DNA of 18,578 bases from the UHGV virus genome UHGV-0126919. One strand, written 5' to 3'. Position numbers and translations under genes: made by a program. The DNA comes from a virus. The notes under the pieces were generated by a model, which saw only the letters and a list, made by a program, of their open reading frames with translations, was not told the DNA's origin and made no database searches. Shown here piece after piece: positions 10,359 through 16,614 of the stretch. Every line of letters begins with the position of its first letter. Position 1 is the stretch's first letter.

Positions 10359-11780
10359 CTATATGGTTACGCCTTTACTTATAACTCTACGGCGTCTTCT
10401 ACGTATACCTGACGAGTTCTGCACATACACATTACCTCGCATTTCCTGTTCGGCAAGCCAGTTAAAATTAGGGTTCAGAATTTCCATCGCGGCAGTTGCA
10501 TAGTTACGGCAATCAAGAGGCTCGTTACGCTCGTAGACTTTCACCCACTTTTCTTTTGTCTGCCCATTTTTATATTCAAATATTTTTTTCTCTGATAATA
10601 ATCCTTTAAAGTATTCGGTATCATATCCTCTGTCAGAATCTAATGGGAAATGCATATAACCAGGACCAGGATCATGTAGTTTAATTCTTGCCATGATGGT
10701 CCCTTTACCATCATCAACCCCCAAATTAAACAACATAGCACCCACACGGTTATTATTACTTGGCTTTCCTATAAATGGTAAACCTACCCCACCACGCCCC
10801 CTGATAGAGTATATTCGCCTTGATTCTCTCGGCTTAGTAAAGCGATATACCTCTGTCGTAAAATGCCCACCAGAGTCAATACAAACGGAAGAAATCTGTA
10901 ATTTTCGACCGTCACGGAATGACCAGCTACGGAGTAAGTATTCATCAAGTTGTTTCCAGACAACATCTTGTGCGGGATCACCTGGGAATATTTTATATTC
11001 TATCCCCCATGACTCCTTACCTTTTCCCCAACCGACCAATTCACAAACTAAATACGTGTCCTGTACGTCAACACCAGCACTTAACAATAAAACATCATCT
11101 GGTAAAAACTCTTCAAACCTTATTCTGCGTTGCAACAAGTATTCAGGATCGATATCGTCTTTAGCATCCTCTTTCCATGGCTCACCCAGCTTAAGGTTAA
11201 TAAACTCCATTAATCCATTTTTATCGCGGTTTCTGGTTGCTTCCGTAAATTCTTCAACCAGCTCTGACAATGCAACCCACGGGGAGTAAAGACTGTTAAT
11301 ATGAAAACCAACAATACCTTTAACTCCAGTATGTTCAGCTATCCATACCCCCTTCGCCAACCAATCAACGTCTGGTTTACCAGATCCGCGCATAATCCCG
11401 CCGCACTCACAGCACTCATATCTGGCCGTTTCCGGTAACGCCTCACCTGAATCGCTCTTATCCCATCTGACTTGCGACCATTTCATCACCTGCATGGTGC
11501 CACAACATGGGCAAGGAACATGGTAGTAACGCTGATCGGAGAGCTTAAACCACTTGTGGATTTTGCTTGTTTCCTCCAAAACAGGAGTAGAAACAAAAAC
11601 TTTCTTACGATTATGAAAGTTGGTAGTACGCTGAATACCTAGTTTTAGTGGGTCGCCCTCCTGCGTCACACCGTAACGATCAATCTCATCAGCTAACAGT
11701 ATTCGAATTGGCCTGGATGCAAGACCTGCTGGGGAATTAGCACCAACAAGTGCTATATATCCACCAGCGTAATGCTTCAT
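10359..11780 (-). CDS. terminase large subunit (lambda gpA-like), C-terminal segment (473 aa)
   Basis: MKHYAGGYIALVGANSPAG… aligns with lambda gpA from about residue 137 (TMKRFTNGRGFWCLGG…) and continues through the …FHINSLYSPW… region (lambda …FHIWTAYSPF…). Its ATG overlaps the TGA of the N-terminal segment (ATGA). Confidence 0.85.
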   Translation of the reverse strand: MKHYAGGYIALVGANSPAGLASRPIRILLADEIDRYGVTQEGDPLKLGIQRTTNFHNRKKVFVSTPVLEETSKIHKWFKLSDQRYYHVPCPCCGTMQVMKWSQVRWDKSDSGEALPETARYECCECGGIMRGSGKPDVDWLAKGVWIAEHTGVKGIVGFHINSLYSPWVALSELVEEFTEATRNRDKNGLMEFINLKLGEPWKEDAKDDIDPEYLLQRRIRFEEFLPDDVLLLSAGVDVQDTYLVCELVGWGKGKESWGIEYKIFPGDPAQDVVWKQLDEYLLRSWSFRDGRKLQISSVCIDSGGHFTTEVYRFTKPRESRRIYSIRGRGGVGLPFIGKPSNNNRVGAMLFNLGVDDGKGTIMARIKLHDPGPGYMHFPLDSDRGYDTEYFKGLLSEKKIFEYKNGQTKEKWVKVYERNEPLDCRNYATAAMEILNPNFNWLAEQEMRGNVYVQNSSGIRRRRRRVISKGVTI

Positions 11781-12178
11781 ACGTATAGTCCTTCATGCAG
11801 CTTGTGTTTCAAACCAGGGGAATATTTGAACGTCGGATCAATACGCTCTTTTGAAAAAGCCTCAGCCGCCTCTACCGTTGGATAAATCATCAACTGAGGA
11901 GATGGCTCCTGATCTGCAAAGTAACCCATAACATTTAGCTGTAATTCGGATTTACCAATTTGCGAGCTACATTGCATCACTACTGTTTCTGTATCAGCGT
12001 CACCAATAACATCCATTGGTTCACGCAAATATGGCACTCGGCTTGTACGCCACGGCCCTGGCTCTGGAGACGTTCCCGGCGCTACATGACGATACTTATC
12101 AGCCCATTCGGAAACAGTTAGCCGTGATTTAGGGCGAAGCGCACGGAAAAAAGCGGTGCTCCATACTGTTTCGCCCAT
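11777..12178 (-). CDS. terminase large subunit (lambda gpA-like), N-terminal segment (133 aa)
   Basis: …TVSEWADKYRHVAPGTSPEPGPWRTSRVPYLREPMDVIG…VVMQCSSQIGKSELQLNVMGYFA… parallels the lambda gpA N-terminus (…TAVEWADANYYLP…VNVVKSARVGYSKMLLGVYAYFI…) including the P-loop-like segment. It ends where the homology continues in the -1 frame, so one gene is split by a frame break. Confidence 0.8.
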   Translation of the reverse strand: MGETVWSTAFFRALRPKSRLTVSEWADKYRHVAPGTSPEPGPWRTSRVPYLREPMDVIGDADTETVVMQCSSQIGKSELQLNVMGYFADQEPSPQLMIYPTVEAAEAFSKERIDPTFKYSPGLKHKLHEGLYV

Positions 12179-12183
12179 GAGGT

Positions 12184-12735
12184 TTATTCTTCCTGCTTAA
12201 TAAATCGGGATTCCTGGAGCGCCTGAAGCGCAAAATTAATCTCGTCTTCAATAATGCGCTCGATCTCCCTGGCTGTTTTGCCTTCACAACGGGGAGCTGC
12301 TCTTGGAGCAATACTAAATAAGCGGCTACGCAATTCATTAGCTGCCAGAAATGCATCATCCCTGACCGCATCTTTAGCGATGAGAGAGCCTTCCTTTTCT
12401 TCAAATTCAAGGCGTTTCAGCTTTGCCTGATAAATTTTTTCTGCGGTCTTAGCCTTGTTGAATTGCACCGCAACACCGGAAGTACCACCAGCTAATCCGG
12501 CATCATCAGCGGGTAACTCTGGTTGTTCCGAAGATATCCCATGCCCTCTTTTTCCATTTTCAGCAGATACCTCACGACCAACCTGTCGGCTCGCTTCATA
12601 AGCCGCACTGGCTTTATCAAAATCCAGCTTGCCGCTTTTCAGCACTGGAATGCGACCGGAACGACAGAGCTTCGTAACCATTGCCGGAGAAATACCTTTC
12701 CGGCGGGCAAACTCTGACTTACTGACGATGGCCAT
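12184..12735 (-). CDS. terminase small subunit (Nu1-like, HTH)
   Basis: N-terminus …SKSEFARRKGISPAMVTKLCRSGRIPVLKSGKLDFDKASAAYEA… resembles lambda Nu1 (…NKKQLADIFGASIRTIQNWQEQGMPVLRGGGKGNEVLYDSAAVIKWY…). Directly upstream of the large terminase. Likely start is ATG at 12735 overlapping the ParB-like TAA (TAATG); the track's TTG at 12744 is an alternative. Confidence 0.7.
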   Translation of the reverse strand: MAIVSKSEFARRKGISPAMVTKLCRSGRIPVLKSGKLDFDKASAAYEASRQVGREVSAENGKRGHGISSEQPELPADDAGLAGGTSGVAVQFNKAKTAEKIYQAKLKRLEFEEKEGSLIAKDAVRDDAFLAANELRSRLFSIAPRAAPRCEGKTAREIERIIEDEINFALQALQESRFIKQEE

Positions 12736-13325
12736 TACTTGCAACCATTAGCAAGATACTGAACAAATCCCTCATGCGTTTCATGCGCGTCGTGGTACTG
12801 ACGATAAACATCCAGCAACAATGCAATTTCCATATCCGTCGCGGGAATACGTTCTTTATCAATAGCCAGGTACTTAATTTGAACAACAGGGGAAGAATTA
12901 TCGTCTTCTTCCTGCGGCTGTTCATCGCTTAACATTTCGTCAAGCTCTGCATCATTAAACCCAAGCAGATCAATATCAAAATCATCATCCATTAACTCTT
13001 TGACTTCTTCGGCCAGAAGCTGCATATCCCAGCCAGCATTTAAGGCCAGCTTGTTATCTGCAATCCTGTAAGCCTTCTTCTGTTTTTCAGAAAGGTTACT
13101 CAACCGAATCGCCGGAACTTTATCCATTTCCAGAATTTCGGCTGCTGCAAGCCGCCCATGCCCCGCAATCAGTTCATTCTTTTCATCGATCAGCACAGGA
13201 TTAGTGAAACCGAACTCACGGATACTGTTCACCAACTGTTCAACTTGCTCATCTGAATGAGTCCGTGAATTTTTGGCATATCTGAGCAACTTACCGACTG
13301 GTAAATATTCGATTTTTAGAGCCAT
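12735..13325 (-). CDS. ParB-like N-terminal (ParB/Srx) domain protein, paralog A
   Basis: 196 aa; …NSRTHSDEQVEQLVNSIREFGFTNPVLIDEKNELIAGHGRLAAA…QKKAYRIADNKLALNAGWD… has the ParB-N style G-H-x-R box. Roughly half its residues match paralog B (15991..16614) by eye. Translationally coupled to the small terminase. Confidence 0.7.
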   Translation of the reverse strand: MALKIEYLPVGKLLRYAKNSRTHSDEQVEQLVNSIREFGFTNPVLIDEKNELIAGHGRLAAAEILEMDKVPAIRLSNLSEKQKKAYRIADNKLALNAGWDMQLLAEEVKELMDDDFDIDLLGFNDAELDEMLSDEQPQEEDDNSSPVVQIKYLAIDKERIPATDMEIALLLDVYRQYHDAHETHEGFVQYLANGCK

Positions 13326-13881
13326 TTTTTAACCGCCATAACACAACAGGTTAAAGAAAACTGTTTAACTTATTGATACTAAAAGAGAAAAATGACGATC
13401 TTTTTACTCATAAAAAATCACACAAACCAGCATAATTATCTGATTTTATTAAGTTTTTATAAGTAAAAAGGATCTTGCGATGGTGTTTTGGTTAAAAGAT
13501 TGGATGTATTTGCATGATTTATAACGATTTTTATCAGAACAACATCACATTGGTTAAAGATCTGCGCGTATCTTGATGATCTAAAAGAAAATTTTCCACT
13601 TTCTTCTTACCAGCACAAATACAGAAAAAATCACGTTTTCCCGATATTTTTCAATGAGATGAGTAAATTTCTTTTACCGCAACTTTTAACCTAACTTTTT
13701 TCACGTTTAGCTAGCCGAATATCGGGGTTCGAATGACCCGCATCCAACGCTTTTGGCCAGAAGGACCCAATTCTGCCGGACGATGAAACGATGCTCGTGC
13801 TCCCCCACAGACAGCCAGCGAGCGACGCTACAGAACACAGTGAATACACTCTGCATAACAACACCATCAACCACACGATGA
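13326..13881. other. 556-bp noncoding region (AT-rich left part, GC-rich right part) upstream of the packaging module; candidate cos/pac or regulatory region
   Basis: No convincing ORF. Direct repeat TTGGTTAAA(A)GAT at 13488-13500 and 13550-13561. Four GATC sites at 13397, 13471, 13559, 13578. GC-rich segment 13700-13860 with small hairpins. Confidence 0.5.
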
Positions 13882-14601
13882 TTAACGAGAGAAGGTCTTA
13901 GAAAGAATGTCATCAATCGCCTTTGTGACTTCATCAGCAAACGCATCCTCACCAGCACGCAGCGCCACGCCATGCCAATCAAGACGCTGCGAATAGTTAG
14001 GTTGCTGGATAAACGTAAGGATCAACGTAGGACGCCGCCCAACGCGCTGCCAGACGCCTGGTTGAAGCGGGTTACTTGTACCAGGTCGAACAACAAAAAA
14101 CTCCGTAGGCTTGCCCTGACGGCGATTTTGATGCGCATCTCGCTGAACTCTTAGGCCAGATAAGACCTGCTGTAATTGCCCCCGCGAAATATTCCCGTAT
14201 TTGTCCAGCTTTGCGCCGGGACCAGGAGCAAGCTGCCAGCCGTTAGGCAAATATCCACCAGCCCTTAGCGCCCCTTCTGAGCGTTTGTACTGTCGTTGGC
14301 CACCTTCGATTTGCGGAGTCAACGTTACAGGGGCTGGCGTTCCTCCCCATTCACGAGCATACACAATGGCTGTAGGATCACTCTTCTTTGCGGCCAAAAC
14401 GTAAGTAGAGTTCTGAATCCACGGCGTGGGCCTGTCAAATACCCGATTAATTTCATTCTTAATCGCAGCCTGAGAAGCCTTTGCCGTTCTGGTTGCCGCA
14501 AGCGCCATTGCGAACGGCAATTCGCGTTCTTCAAGGCGCTGGAGTTGTCGTTGAATATCCTGAGAAGAAAAATCCATCTTTATCTCAATTCTGTCAGCCA
14601 C
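13882..14601 (-). CDS. hypothetical basic protein (239 aa), no family recognised
   Basis: GTG start at 14601 preceded by a strong SD (TAGGAGG, 5-nt spacer), 16 nt downstream of the methyltransferase stop. Arg-rich throughout. Last gene of the ParB-B / methyltransferase unit before the noncoding region. Confidence 0.6.
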   Translation of the reverse strand: MADRIEIKMDFSSQDIQRQLQRLEERELPFAMALAATRTAKASQAAIKNEINRVFDRPTPWIQNSTYVLAAKKSDPTAIVYAREWGGTPAPVTLTPQIEGGQRQYKRSEGALRAGGYLPNGWQLAPGPGAKLDKYGNISRGQLQQVLSGLRVQRDAHQNRRQGKPTEFFVVRPGTSNPLQPGVWQRVGRRPTLILTFIQQPNYSQRLDWHGVALRAGEDAFADEVTKAIDDILSKTFSR

Positions 14602-14617
14602 CAGCGCCTCCTACACA

Positions 14618-15991
14618 CTACTTAATCAACGGCCGGAAAGCCGCCAGCACATCATCAGATCGTCCGATTGTTGAACCACCAGGCAACGGCAACTCAAACT
14701 CAAAACGAACAGCTTTCTCCAGACTCGCCCAACTAAGGGAATCATCGTTAATAACGTGCAAATACCAGCTCTTACAGTTGAATATTGACCGCTTAATCCT
14801 GAAACCATGTACACGACACAACTGCTTCACTTCATCATCAGAGTGAAACTTCTGGTAAAACCAGTGCCCCTTCCGGTACAACGCGGTAAAACCGTTATGA
14901 TCAATAAAATAAAGCCGGCTTTTGGAACTCGCAGCTTGTGTTTGCTTCAGGACTGTTTCCAGCTCTCCACGGCTACGGCCAGAAAAGAATATTGACCCAC
15001 CAGCTTTACACAAGCCTTTCAGAACCGTCAGAACGGACCATTCAGCCTCGACACTATCGACCGAGTTCAAAACGCTATCGCAAATCACGTAGTCGTAACG
15101 CCCTCGCGTTTTTAAGTCGTCCACCAGCGTATCAATCATCCGGTTTGTTGCGGTCCTATCCAGAGTGTTTCCAGCGCCCTTACGGCGGAAAAGCTCGAGA
15201 TCATGCAGGTTATATCCCTTTGCCCTGAGCATTCGCGCGTAGTCTCCCTGCCCCGAACCAAAATCAATTCCTCTTGGCGTCTTGGCAATGATCGGGAGGA
15301 TCAACGACTCATACAGGTTTGATTTCAGGCTGCCACCATTACGCAACCGCATAAGCTGCGCATACGTCTGGATGTATGTTGTTTTCTCCAGATGAGAATA
15401 CTCAAATACACCATAAGTTTTATTCAGATAACTTTGGTATTTTTCCTTCTCAACATCAGGGATCACAAACACCGTTAGCGGTGTGCGCGTCATTTTCGCT
15501 GCTAATGCATACTGAGCACAGTGAATAACCTCACCAGACTGAGTAGCAACACAACCACCCCACGGACCATACTTGATAACCAGTTCCGCTATGTTCTTTC
15601 GAACATATGCCATTTTCGCGCGCATATTGCCTGAGATCTGGCTTGCCGATACCTGAACAAAACCATGCTTATCTTCCAGACCGGACACCCTGCAACGCTC
15701 ATCTCCGCTATCAAAATCCGTTCCGTTATGCAGTTGGTTAAACCGTACTTCGTCGTATACCGTCGTTTCACAGGGCAACACATACACCGCAGCACGCGTT
15801 ATTCCCAACTTACGTAGCGCCTTCGTCCTTTGGTGTCCCGCCACCAGCAAATCGCCGCGCACTATCAATGGCTTCACAAGCCCCAGCTCCCTGACGCTTT
15901 CCGCCAGCCTCGCAAGATCATCCTCACCGATAAAACGCGGGTTATATTCCGCGCCGCGTAGGTGCGTTATGTCGTAATTGAGGTGAAGCAT
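14618..15991 (-). CDS. ParB-like N-terminal domain fused to a class I SAM-dependent methyltransferase domain
   Basis: N-terminus …YNPRFIGEDDLARLAESVRELGLVKPLIVRGDLLVAGHQRTKAL… is ParB-N-like. C-terminal half has Rossmann methyltransferase motifs in class I order: motif I GIDFGSGQGDY, acidic post-I (…YNLHDLELF), motif II YDYVICDSVL, motif III LCKAGGSIFFS. No (D/N/S)PP(Y/F/W) motif seen by eye. Likely start is ATG at 15991 (TGATG overlap with the ParB-B stop, SD GGAGG 7 nt upstream); the track uses GTG at 15997. Confidence 0.75.
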   Translation of the reverse strand: MLHLNYDITHLRGAEYNPRFIGEDDLARLAESVRELGLVKPLIVRGDLLVAGHQRTKALRKLGITRAAVYVLPCETTVYDEVRFNQLHNGTDFDSGDERCRVSGLEDKHGFVQVSASQISGNMRAKMAYVRKNIAELVIKYGPWGGCVATQSGEVIHCAQYALAAKMTRTPLTVFVIPDVEKEKYQSYLNKTYGVFEYSHLEKTTYIQTYAQLMRLRNGGSLKSNLYESLILPIIAKTPRGIDFGSGQGDYARMLRAKGYNLHDLELFRRKGAGNTLDRTATNRMIDTLVDDLKTRGRYDYVICDSVLNSVDSVEAEWSVLTVLKGLCKAGGSIFFSGRSRGELETVLKQTQAASSKSRLYFIDHNGFTALYRKGHWFYQKFHSDDEVKQLCRVHGFRIKRSIFNCKSWYLHVINDDSLSWASLEKAVRFEFELPLPGGSTIGRSDDVLAAFRPLIK

Positions 15992-16614
15992 CAGCACACC
16001 TCCCCAGCCAGCAATGCGGATACAAATCCGATATAGCTGCCATTATCATCAACATAACGAGACACCGCGCAGTCAAAACGATCCGCTTCCTCATCCGTTG
16101 CCGGGATTTTATGACCTCCAAATGACAGGTACTGAACTTTTACGCCTGATTTGGCCTCATCCTTCTCAAATGGGATATCCATACCCTCTGTGTCATCGTA
16201 GACCGCCGCACTCAATAAGTTATCCAGTTCGCGCTGAGTAAAACCAATTGAGTCCAGAGAAAAATCATCGGCCGCAAGATCTGCAAGCTCCGCGCTTAAC
16301 AACTCTTCATCCCAACCAGCATTCAGCGGAATACGGTTGTCGGCCAGACGATATGCCTTCTTCTGATTCTCCGTTAGCCCAGCCAGAACAATGCAGGGAA
16401 CATCATCCATCCCCAACTGAGTGGCCGCAGCAATTCGACCATGACCAGCAATTACAACGTTGTTCTCGTCTATCAGGATCGGATTAGTCCATCCGTACTC
16501 CTGTATGCTGGCAACAATCTGATCTACCTGCTCCACGGAGTGTGTGCGAGCGTTCTTTTCATAACCAATCAACACAGAAAGTGGTAAAGAAACCACATTA
16601 AGTTGTTTTGTCAT
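15991..16614 (-). CDS. ParB-like N-terminal (ParB/Srx) domain protein, paralog B
   Basis: 207 aa; …NARTHSVEQVDQIVASIQEYGWTNPILIDENNVVIAGHGRIAAA…QKKAYRLADNRIPLNAGWD… is clearly paralogous to 12735..13325. Translationally coupled to the methyltransferase fusion. Confidence 0.7.
   Translation of the reverse strand: MTKQLNVVSLPLSVLIGYEKNARTHSVEQVDQIVASIQEYGWTNPILIDENNVVIAGHGRIAAATQLGMDDVPCIVLAGLTENQKKAYRLADNRIPLNAGWDEELLSAELADLAADDFSLDSIGFTQRELDNLLSAAVYDDTEGMDIPFEKDEAKSGVKVQYLSFGGHKIPATDEEADRFDCAVSRYVDDNGSYIGFVSALLAGEVC

Follow-up and report, generated by a model that had tools for sequence, protein, structure and literature searches.

The DNA analysed here, an 18,578-nt stretch of the virus genome UHGV-0126919 (the window), carries on its minus strand at 14618..15991 an open reading frame (ORF) for a 457-aa protein in which a ParB-type domain is joined to a methyltransferase domain. 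The window comes from a phage-plasmid of ~48 kb, an E. coli myovirus, in which the methyltransferase gene belongs to the late operon. Yersinia phages vB_YpM_39, 41 and 44 and E. coli phage vB_EcoM-613R2 share 99-100% identity with the sequence. Of 5426 complete E. coli genomes 71 contained it, at 74 places of which 73 lay on plasmids, and 63 PLSDB plasmids carry it as well. The protein itself is identical to proteins in dozens of database records.

The ORF starts with ATG. A GTG in the same frame at 15997 would lengthen the protein by 2 aa; the ATG was preferred because it overlaps the TGA of the gene upstream (TGATG), has a Shine-Dalgarno sequence, GGGGAGG, 7 nt 5' of it and lies at the place where the homologues also begin, with Met-Leu. 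Judged from these sequence features the 457-aa form is the likely product. It corresponds end to end to phrog_5475 (residues 1-457 on positions 1-457 of a 458-position profile, E 1.6e-265), a family annotated in PHROGs as 'unknown function'. When the single sequence was compared with Pfam, ParB_N matched residues 7-68 (E 3e-5; 24.3 bits, just below the cut-off of 26.3) and Methyltransf_23 (PF13489) matched residues 231-398 with 32.6 bits against a cut-off of 27, while the matches to PF08242 (Methyltransf_12) and PF08241 (Methyltransf_11) were weaker and below their cut-offs. An AlphaFold2 (AF2) model built from an alignment of 40 homologues had a predicted local distance difference test score (pLDDT) of 93.6 and a predicted template modelling score (pTM) of 0.89, and the latter value suggests that the three domains of the model would form one compact unit. 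The parts stand in the order ParB-CTPase domain, degenerate ParB/Srx-like domain and class I S-adenosylmethionine (SAM) methyltransferase, the second of these being the most likely assignment of the middle region. All are on the minus strand:

14618..15991, minus: whole ORF as given in the ORF list, 457 aa plus stop, three domains, PHROG 5475
15707..15991, minus: ParB-CTPase (ParB N-terminal) domain, residues 1-95, matched to Spo0J by the family profile
15296..15706, minus: most likely a degenerate ParB/Srx-like domain with a conserved linker/lid, residues 96-232; core ~110-190, no GxxR
14621..15295, minus: class I SAM methyltransferase domain, residues 233-457, Methyltransf_23 type, with a C-terminal beta-hairpin/helix elaboration
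15239..15271, minus: motif I (SAM-binding loop), G241-IDFGSGQGDY-251; D243, F244, G245 and G247 invariant
15056..15097, minus: strand beta4 and motif IV, Y299-DYVICDSVLNSVD-312; model strand 299-304, the site where DPPY or NPPY would be

The catalytic domain and the missing tetrapeptide

By sequence and fold the catalytic domain belongs to the class I SAM methyltransferases, Methyltransf_23 type, and lies outside the DNA amino- and C5-methyltransferase families. It has the seven-stranded Rossmann-like fold. When a profile of the 40 homologues was searched against all PDB sequences, UbiG (4kdr) matched residues 244-355 with an E of 1e-6, and the family consensus VVCDSVLNSVD was aligned to VTCMEMLEHVPD of UbiG. 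Foldseek comparison with the PDB gave GNMT, CcbJ, MtfA, NNMT and Trm9 as fold neighbours, and further neighbours were toxoflavin N-methyltransferase, UbiG, METTL6, phosphoethanolamine methyltransferase, CypM, the SpnF cyclase and AzeJ. Natural-product methyltransferases are thus among the nearest relatives by sequence and fold, and neither list of neighbours contained a DNA methyltransferase. The domain is basic throughout the family, with a median isoelectric point (pI) of 8.6 and a pI above 8 in 78% of members.

The original prediction was that the tetrapeptide of the DNA amino-methyltransferases is lacking, and this was confirmed. A regular-expression search for [DNS]PP[YFWH], relaxed forms included, found no match anywhere in the 457 aa, and there is not one Pro-Pro dipeptide among the 11 prolines of the protein. 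The bare absence has no statistical weight because only 0.004 matches to [DNS]PP[YFW] would be expected by chance from the composition of the protein. Amino-methyltransferases carry DPPY, NPPY or SPPF directly after strand beta4, and in the AF2 model the segment following this strand (residues 299-304) reads D305-S-V-L-N309-S310-V-D312. The absence is informative because the structural position is fixed and the site after beta4 is filled by DSVLNS. A divergent (D/N/S)PP(Y/F/W) in the correct structural position, named beforehand as the finding that would count against the prediction, was sought and not found, DSVLNS being present instead. A hidden DPPY-like motif was thus rejected, both by the pattern search and by this position in the model.

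The claim that the signatures of the C5-cytosine enzymes are missing is equally sound. ENV does not occur in the protein, the one Pro-Cys (residue 73) belongs to the ParB domain and not to the methyltransferase part, and PF00145, the model for C5-cytosine DNA methyltransferases, gave no match to the 457 aa. No DNA-methyltransferase model of Pfam, NCBIfam or PADLOC matched the catalytic domain. The catalytic domain sits in the Methyltransf_23/11/12 branch and is not a degenerate DNA methyltransferase. The missing DPPY is a property of this branch of methyltransferases, expected and no anomaly, because the profile and fold neighbours are never DNA methyltransferases.

The three peptides that had been labelled motifs I to III are present in the protein, GIDFGSGQGDY at residue 241, YDYVICDSVL at 299 and LCKAGGSIFFS at 327, though only the first label was correct. 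The peptide called motif II is strand beta4 with motif IV, and that called motif III is beta5. The glycine-rich motif I, D243-F-G-S-G-Q-G249, is predicted to bind SAM. The true acidic residue of motif II is E266 (in HDLELFRR), at the end of beta2 and directly after the strand at 261-265, and it is conserved in at least 93% of relatives.

The methyltransferase part alone was also searched against 1.84 billion representative proteins, and the 391 proteins found all belonged to this family, so that a search for annotated stand-alone relatives of the domain gave none among these representatives. Most of the 391 are ~460 aa long and match at positions 225-460; the shorter ones may be fragments. The catalytic clade therefore seems to be confined essentially to the ParB fusion.

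The ParB domain, the middle region and the family

That the methyltransferase is fused to a ParB-N domain, as had been predicted, is borne out by the Pfam match to residues 7-68 and by the family profile, which matches Spo0J. In the search of the PDB with the 40-homologue profile, Spo0J, Noc and ParB all matched residues 5-82 (Spo0J 6sdk, E 3e-8), with YNPR19 opposite YQPR and GHQR55 opposite GERR of 6sdk. PHROG ParB families match the N-terminal domain with an E of 3e-14, and matches to NCBIfam and PADLOC models are limited to the ParB part of the protein. Box I is A14-E-Y-N-P-R19, Box II is A51-G-H-Q-R55 and Box III is D80-E-V-R-F-N-Q-L-H-N89, of which F84, N85, H88 and N89 sit in the helix after Box II. 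In the alignment to Spo0J, with the residue roles taken from PMC13229309, the phosphate-binding arginines R19 and R55 are kept and the residues for hydrolysis of cytidine triphosphate (CTP) are swapped, the Gln being replaced by N17 and the Glu by H53. From this pattern we infer a nucleotide-binding switch whose hydrolysis chemistry would be unlike that of canonical ParB. No helix-turn-helix (HTH) or ParB C-terminal domain was matched by Pfam in the 457-aa protein.

The middle region of ~150 aa was described as uncharacterised in the original prediction. In the AF2 model residues 110-189 run strand, helix, strand, strand, helix, strand, helix, the order found in residues 2-90 of the ParB domain. 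When the middle domain was compared on its own, the top eight matches were all ParB/Srx folds, namely plant and human sulfiredoxin, PadC, SbnI, pNOB8 ParB, KorB, Spo0J and SerK. The domain, with its core at ~110-190, is without GxxR. This region is therefore most likely a second, degenerate ParB/Srx-like domain. It is followed, ahead of motif I, by a conserved linker or lid marked by Y193, G194, Y198, Q208, A211, Q212 and R215.

Homologues of the full protein fell into 781 clusters (90% identity) at E<=1e-3, and among the 120 of these that are listed most are 455-480 aa long, nearly all carry PF13489 and most also carry PF02195. The family is spread over phages of Proteobacteria, Bacteroidota and Firmicutes. 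The window protein has 45-60% identity, over the full length, to Serratia, Klebsiella, Bradyrhizobium and Hyphomicrobium prophage proteins; its identity to a protein of Bacteroides phage BS-TP3 is 36% and to one of Brochothrix phage BtpYZU02 27%. Database labels for members of the family include 'ParB', 'nuclease', 'partitioning protein' and 'methyltransferase domain-containing protein'. The gene is thus a typical member of an already catalogued, functionally unsolved phage family.

Conservation was read from an alignment of 67 sequences with relatives from several phyla. The invariant residues of the ParB domain are A14, Y16, N17, P18 and R19; A51, G52, H53, Q54 and R55; and F84, N85, H88 and N89. 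Those of the middle region are G142; Y193, G194 and Y198; and Q208, A211, Q212 and R215. In the methyltransferase D243, F244, G245 and G247; V307, N309 and S310; and D364, G375, Q380 and E431 are invariant, and E266, R339, W377 and H383 are nearly so. The residues of the ParB boxes are unchanged from the E. coli phage to the Bacteroides and Brochothrix phages, and because the residues of Boxes I-III are invariant across phyla the nucleotide switch is taken to be essential.

Neighbouring genes and related loci

The genes around the methyltransferase gene in the window all lie on the same strand:

15991..16614, minus: short stand-alone ParB, 207 aa, Box II GHGR; phrog_620, E 3e-74; the presumed partner
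13882..14601, minus: 239-aa gene directly downstream of the methyltransferase gene; phrog_1924 'minor tail protein', no Pfam match
12735..13325, minus: another short ParB of 196 aa, a paralogue with 48% identity to the first; the terminase small subunit gene follows directly downstream
12184..12744, minus: terminase small subunit (TerS); phrog_57, E 7e-42
10359..12178, minus: terminase large subunit (TerL), GpA type; two ORFs in the window

The short ParB gene at 15991..16614 is translationally coupled to the methyltransferase gene, and its product matches the N-terminal ~150 aa of fusions of ParB with DNA methyltransferases (phrog_498, E 2e-50; PADLOC MTase_II, E 2.5e-37). The short ParBs in general belong to phrog_620 and share this homology. 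In p142_C, a complete relative, the short ParB gene is followed by the fusion gene, the 239-aa gene, the second short ParB gene, TerS, TerL and the head and tail genes. Ahead of these the same replicon has RepA, a ParA gene ~13 kb from the fusion gene, a lysis cassette, a tRNA gene and a pseudogene of an MT-A70 methyltransferase. This frameshifted MT-A70 DNA methyltransferase gene of p142_C (locus L084, 16307-16893) is ~2 kb upstream of the short ParB gene, in sequence just past the last position of the window, and so the phage-plasmid has, apart from the fusion, a locus for a canonical methyltransferase.

Synteny was compared in 80 related viral and genomic loci. The recurring order was short ParB, fusion, in some cases a small gene, TerS, TerL and portal. 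A short ParB gene on the same strand lay <=1 kb upstream of the fusion in 65 of the 71 loci with room for one and usually overlapped the start codon, and 49 of 63 loci had a TerL gene <=4.5 kb downstream (median distance 1.1 kb). The downstream TerL proteins belong to four unrelated families, GpA, Terminase_6, Terminase_3 and Terminase_1. In the nearest phages by TerL (Vibrio phage X29, 59% identity) the genes for short ParB, TerS and TerL stand together as a trio and the fusion gene is missing. It follows that the E. coli lineage gained the set of short ParB, fusion and 239-aa gene, on the other side of the presumed genome end, and the trio of X29 points to a packaging-linked function of the short ParBs themselves.

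Several further observations were made on the window and the related loci. The 'minor tail protein' label of the 239-aa gene looks doubtful, as the gene stands between the methyltransferase and packaging genes, a long way from those for the tail. Its place is taken in most relatives by an orphan family of ~145 aa, found directly downstream of the fusion in 41 of the 80 loci (for example L002 9419-9883, L004 2210-2644 and L072 7902-8417) and bearing the invariant pattern W..K...HC..(C)L.G ... Y.CGV ... N.H ... CRN. No Pfam, PHROG or PDB relative of this orphan family was found and it is absent from all six frames of the window; its protein may be a third component of the module. Genes for Amidoligase_2 and a GGACT (gamma-glutamyl cyclotransferase-like) protein adjoin the module in a Bradyrhizobium prophage and a metagenomic phage (L002 11054-17196, L006 9381-10973), and in a group of metagenomic phage relatives a SNF2-family helicase gene lies just downstream of the module between a TerS-like gene and TerL (L073 8789-10498; L071-L079). 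Genes for tRNA were near the module in only 7 of the 41 loci scanned, with mixed anticodons, and a linkage to tRNA is unsupported.

The TerL gene of the window is split into ORFs of 133 and 473 aa by a 37-nt deletion near 11791, relative to the intact 618-aa gene of p142_C, so this copy may be packaging-defective or the split may be an assembly error. The spacer at 13326-13881 is AT-rich, 557 nt long and non-coding, with a 31-nt imperfect inverted repeat at 13400-13470. The record of Yersinia phage vB_YpM_41 stops 143 nt past the 239-aa gene, and the spacer may therefore hold a genome end or cos site. Apart from the inverted repeat in the spacer, parS-like repeats near the genes were limited to short ones at chance level in coding sequence, and promoter and terminator scans gave background levels only.

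Possible functions and known systems

The substrate could not be read from the sequence, as the original prediction had said, and this stands, the nearest folds being small-molecule, tRNA and protein methyltransferases. The reading preferred here, to which a probability of roughly 40% is given, is that the fusion forms a complex with the short ParB, switched by nucleoside triphosphate (NTP), which at a late stage of infection sits on the phage DNA and gives it a methyl mark of a non-canonical kind. The ParB domain would serve as a nucleotide switch, probably for ATP or CTP, and the fusion and the coupled short ParB, perhaps pairing by heterodimerisation of their N-domains as in ParB clamps, would load the enzyme onto phage DNA at packaging. 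DPPY enzymes methylate the exocyclic amino group; here the methyl group would go elsewhere, to a ring nitrogen or oxygen in a base, to the backbone or to the end of the DNA, and the mark would serve the phage in its next host, for example as protection from a restriction-like defence. The module would then be a functional analogue of the phage fusions of ParB with N6/N4 DNA methyltransferases, with another catalytic head. The link to DNA and packaging is drawn because of the frequency of the short ParB (65 of 71 loci) and TerL (49 of 63) beside the fusion and because of the homology of the short ParB to DNA-methyltransferase fusions; the basic catalytic domain counts as weak support. A short phage ParB without HTH that activates a DNA-modifying thymine dioxygenase (PMC13229309) is a precedent for the pairing, the catalytic clade is hardly ever met apart from ParB domains, and the ATP binding reported for fusions of ParB with SAM methyltransferases (PMC12704722) counts in favour of the switch. 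A narrower form of this proposal, in which short ParB and the ParB-ParB'-methyltransferase would make a heteromeric NTP-gated clamp near the packaging site and the mark would fall outside N6-methyladenine (m6A), N4-methylcytosine (m4C) and 5-methylcytosine, at a ring nitrogen or oxygen, an end or the backbone, is speculative and on balance unlikely.

Several points weigh against methylation of phage DNA. There is no direct evidence for any substrate, no target-recognition domain is recognisable in the 457-aa protein, and the fold neighbours include small-molecule, tRNA and protein methyltransferases and no DNA methyltransferase. A conserved lid before motif I, here Y193 to R215, is a usual feature of enzymes that close over a small substrate, and accessory genes in general tend to accumulate beside terminase genes. 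In Brochothrix phage BtpYZU02 the fusion lies in the replication module and is without a short ParB. Phages that carry the fusion also have an ordinary DNA methyltransferase; this disfavours a plain protective m6A or m4C role and does not disfavour a different mark. Finally, the clade of the fusion tested by Kaljevic et al. is not confirmed as this family.

Methylation of a nucleotide or small molecule is the nearest competitor, although it too is improbable. The ParB/Srx domains would bind or phosphorylate a nucleotide-like ligand, and this ligand or a related metabolite or signal would be methylated, for instance to blunt a defence signal of the host. Sulfiredoxin, SerK and SbnI bind or phosphorylate a nucleotide-like ligand, and the middle domain resembles all three. 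The closest folds are N-, O-, C- and S-methyltransferases (toxoflavin N-methyltransferase, UbiG, GNMT, NNMT, phosphoethanolamine methyltransferase), and the conserved lid ahead of motif I and the compact three-domain unit suggested by the pTM of 0.89 point the same way, as does the ATP binding reported for fusions of ParB with SAM methyltransferases (PMC12704722), for which the same clade is not confirmed. This explanation nevertheless leaves the linkage to short ParB and terminase unaccounted for. Placement in the late operon fits a function at the time of packaging better than early interference with a defence signal, biosynthetic or transport genes are not linked, and a basic pI is unusual among metabolite methyltransferases. 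The basic domain would suit an enzyme acting on tRNA or rRNA of host or phage, whether for escape from anticodon nucleases or for tuning of late translation, and several fusions of ParB-CTPase domains to RNA-related domains are noted in PMC12704722. Such a role is nonetheless considered quite improbable, given that tRNA genes with variable anticodons lie near only 7 of 41 loci, that Pfam finds no RNA-binding domain (PUA, THUMP, S4 etc.) and that the linkage to ParB and terminase is again left without explanation.

Less probable still is methylation of a protein, be it TerS, TerL, portal, the ParB partner or a host protein. In most relatives packaging genes lie immediately beside the fusion, some members of the Methyltransf_11/23 clan methylate proteins, and the neighbours CypM and MtfA are peptide N-methyltransferases. 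However, the four downstream terminase families are unrelated and therefore offer no common protein substrate among terminases, the invariant NTP-binding motifs of ParB would have no explanation, and we know of no precedent in tailed phages for protein methylation by such an enzyme. Very little credence is left for a divergent but ordinary DNA amino-methyltransferase that produces m6A or m4C within a defined motif, already disfavoured above. A ParB fusion and a place near terminase are usual features of the orphan DNA methyltransferases of phages (phrog_498; B. cereus Bce_0392), and one GenBank plasmid record says 'phage DNA methylase/nuclease', a label that most likely belongs to the neighbouring short ParB. 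Against this, DSVLNS stands at the position of motif IV with no (D/N/S)PP(Y/F/W) and no PP in the protein, the DNA-methyltransferase models of Pfam, NCBIfam and PADLOC leave the catalytic domain unmatched, and the same phages have a separate canonical methyltransferase. It is just as hard to credit a non-catalytic module that senses SAM or S-adenosylhomocysteine and regulates a DNA-binding or nicking function of the ParB type. Class I folds with roles other than methyl transfer do occur among the neighbours (SpnF cyclase, AzeJ), but the invariant N309, S310, D364, Q380 and E431 and the nearly invariant R339, W377 and H383 reach well past the SAM pocket, and their conservation across phyla is the pattern of a conserved active site.

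Placing the catalytic head outside the amino- and C5-DNA methyltransferases stops the wrong transfer of function between annotations and provides a compact system, two or three genes in size, for tests. The family joins an emerging theme in which phages reuse the ParB nucleotide switch to control enzymes that modify nucleic acids. Should the target be DNA, this would be a new type of phage epigenetic protection, and a non-classical mark would be an unrecognised phage modification chemistry outside the scope of current methylome pipelines. Should it be a nucleotide or RNA, the chemistry of anti-defence would be new.

Of the known systems, the fusions in the survey of the ParB-CTPase fold by Kaljevic et al. 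(PNAS 2025, PMC12704722) share with the window protein the pair of domains and the enrichment in phages and prophages. In that survey PF13489 fusions were commoner in phages than in bacteria, the PF13489 domain was called a 'predicted DNA methyltransferase' with no test of the substrate, and anti-defence roles were suggested. One phage and one bacterial Methyltransf_23 fusion were purified, the phage protein being uvig_65837_18, for which a GxxR Arg-to-Ala mutant was made, the control described for NTP binders. The supplements give accession labels and not sequences, and it is not confirmed that uvig_65837_18 falls in the same clade as PHROG 5475.

The fusions of phrog_498, PADLOC MTase_II PDLC03229 and Bce_0392 resemble the window protein in the N-terminal ParB, the place beside terminase and the late phage context; Bce_0392 of B. 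cereus is a fusion of ParB with an adenine methylase beside terminase genes and has nicking activity. However, the catalytic domain of the phrog_498-type fusions is PF01555 with a DPPY-type motif, whereas the window protein has PF13489 with DSVLNS. It also has two tandem ParB-like domains, and the ParB module that resembles these fusions is a separate protein. A further likeness is to 5mYOX176 and ParB176. Short phage ParBs without HTH activate cognate thymine dioxygenases on DNA (PMC13229309, PNAS 2026), so that here too a short ParB, with a nucleotide-binding and a C-terminal domain and no HTH, stands beside the nucleic-acid-modifying enzyme that it activates. Unlike the window fusion, 5mYOX176 is an iron/2-oxoglutarate (Fe/2OG) dioxygenase without a ParB domain of its own, and the gene content of p142_C includes no 5mYOX or hypermodification genes.

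The structurally related methyltransferases UbiG (4kdr), toxoflavin N1-methyltransferase (5ufm), Trm9 (5cm2), METTL6 (8p7b) and GNMT have only 11-20% identity to the window protein, and the Glu-His of UbiG in the segment after beta4 is Asn-Ser here. Compared with UbiG- and Trm9-type enzymes the ParB fusion and the phage context are unique to this family, and no shared substrate can be inferred. The partition proteins Spo0J and Noc share the fold and the NTP-pocket residues of the N-terminal domain. Unlike them the window protein has neither an HTH nor a C-terminal dimerisation domain, and parA is not adjacent (~13 kb away in p142_C). A second ParB-like domain does not figure in the description of the fusions in PMC12704722, nor do the lack of the amino-methyltransferase motif, the neighbouring short ParB and the linkage to terminase. 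To that picture the present analysis adds that the absence of the motif is a property of the class and that the middle region is probably a second ParB/Srx domain, together with an NTP pocket and a DxVLNS motif that are invariant across phyla and a conserved module with the short ParB at the terminase boundary.

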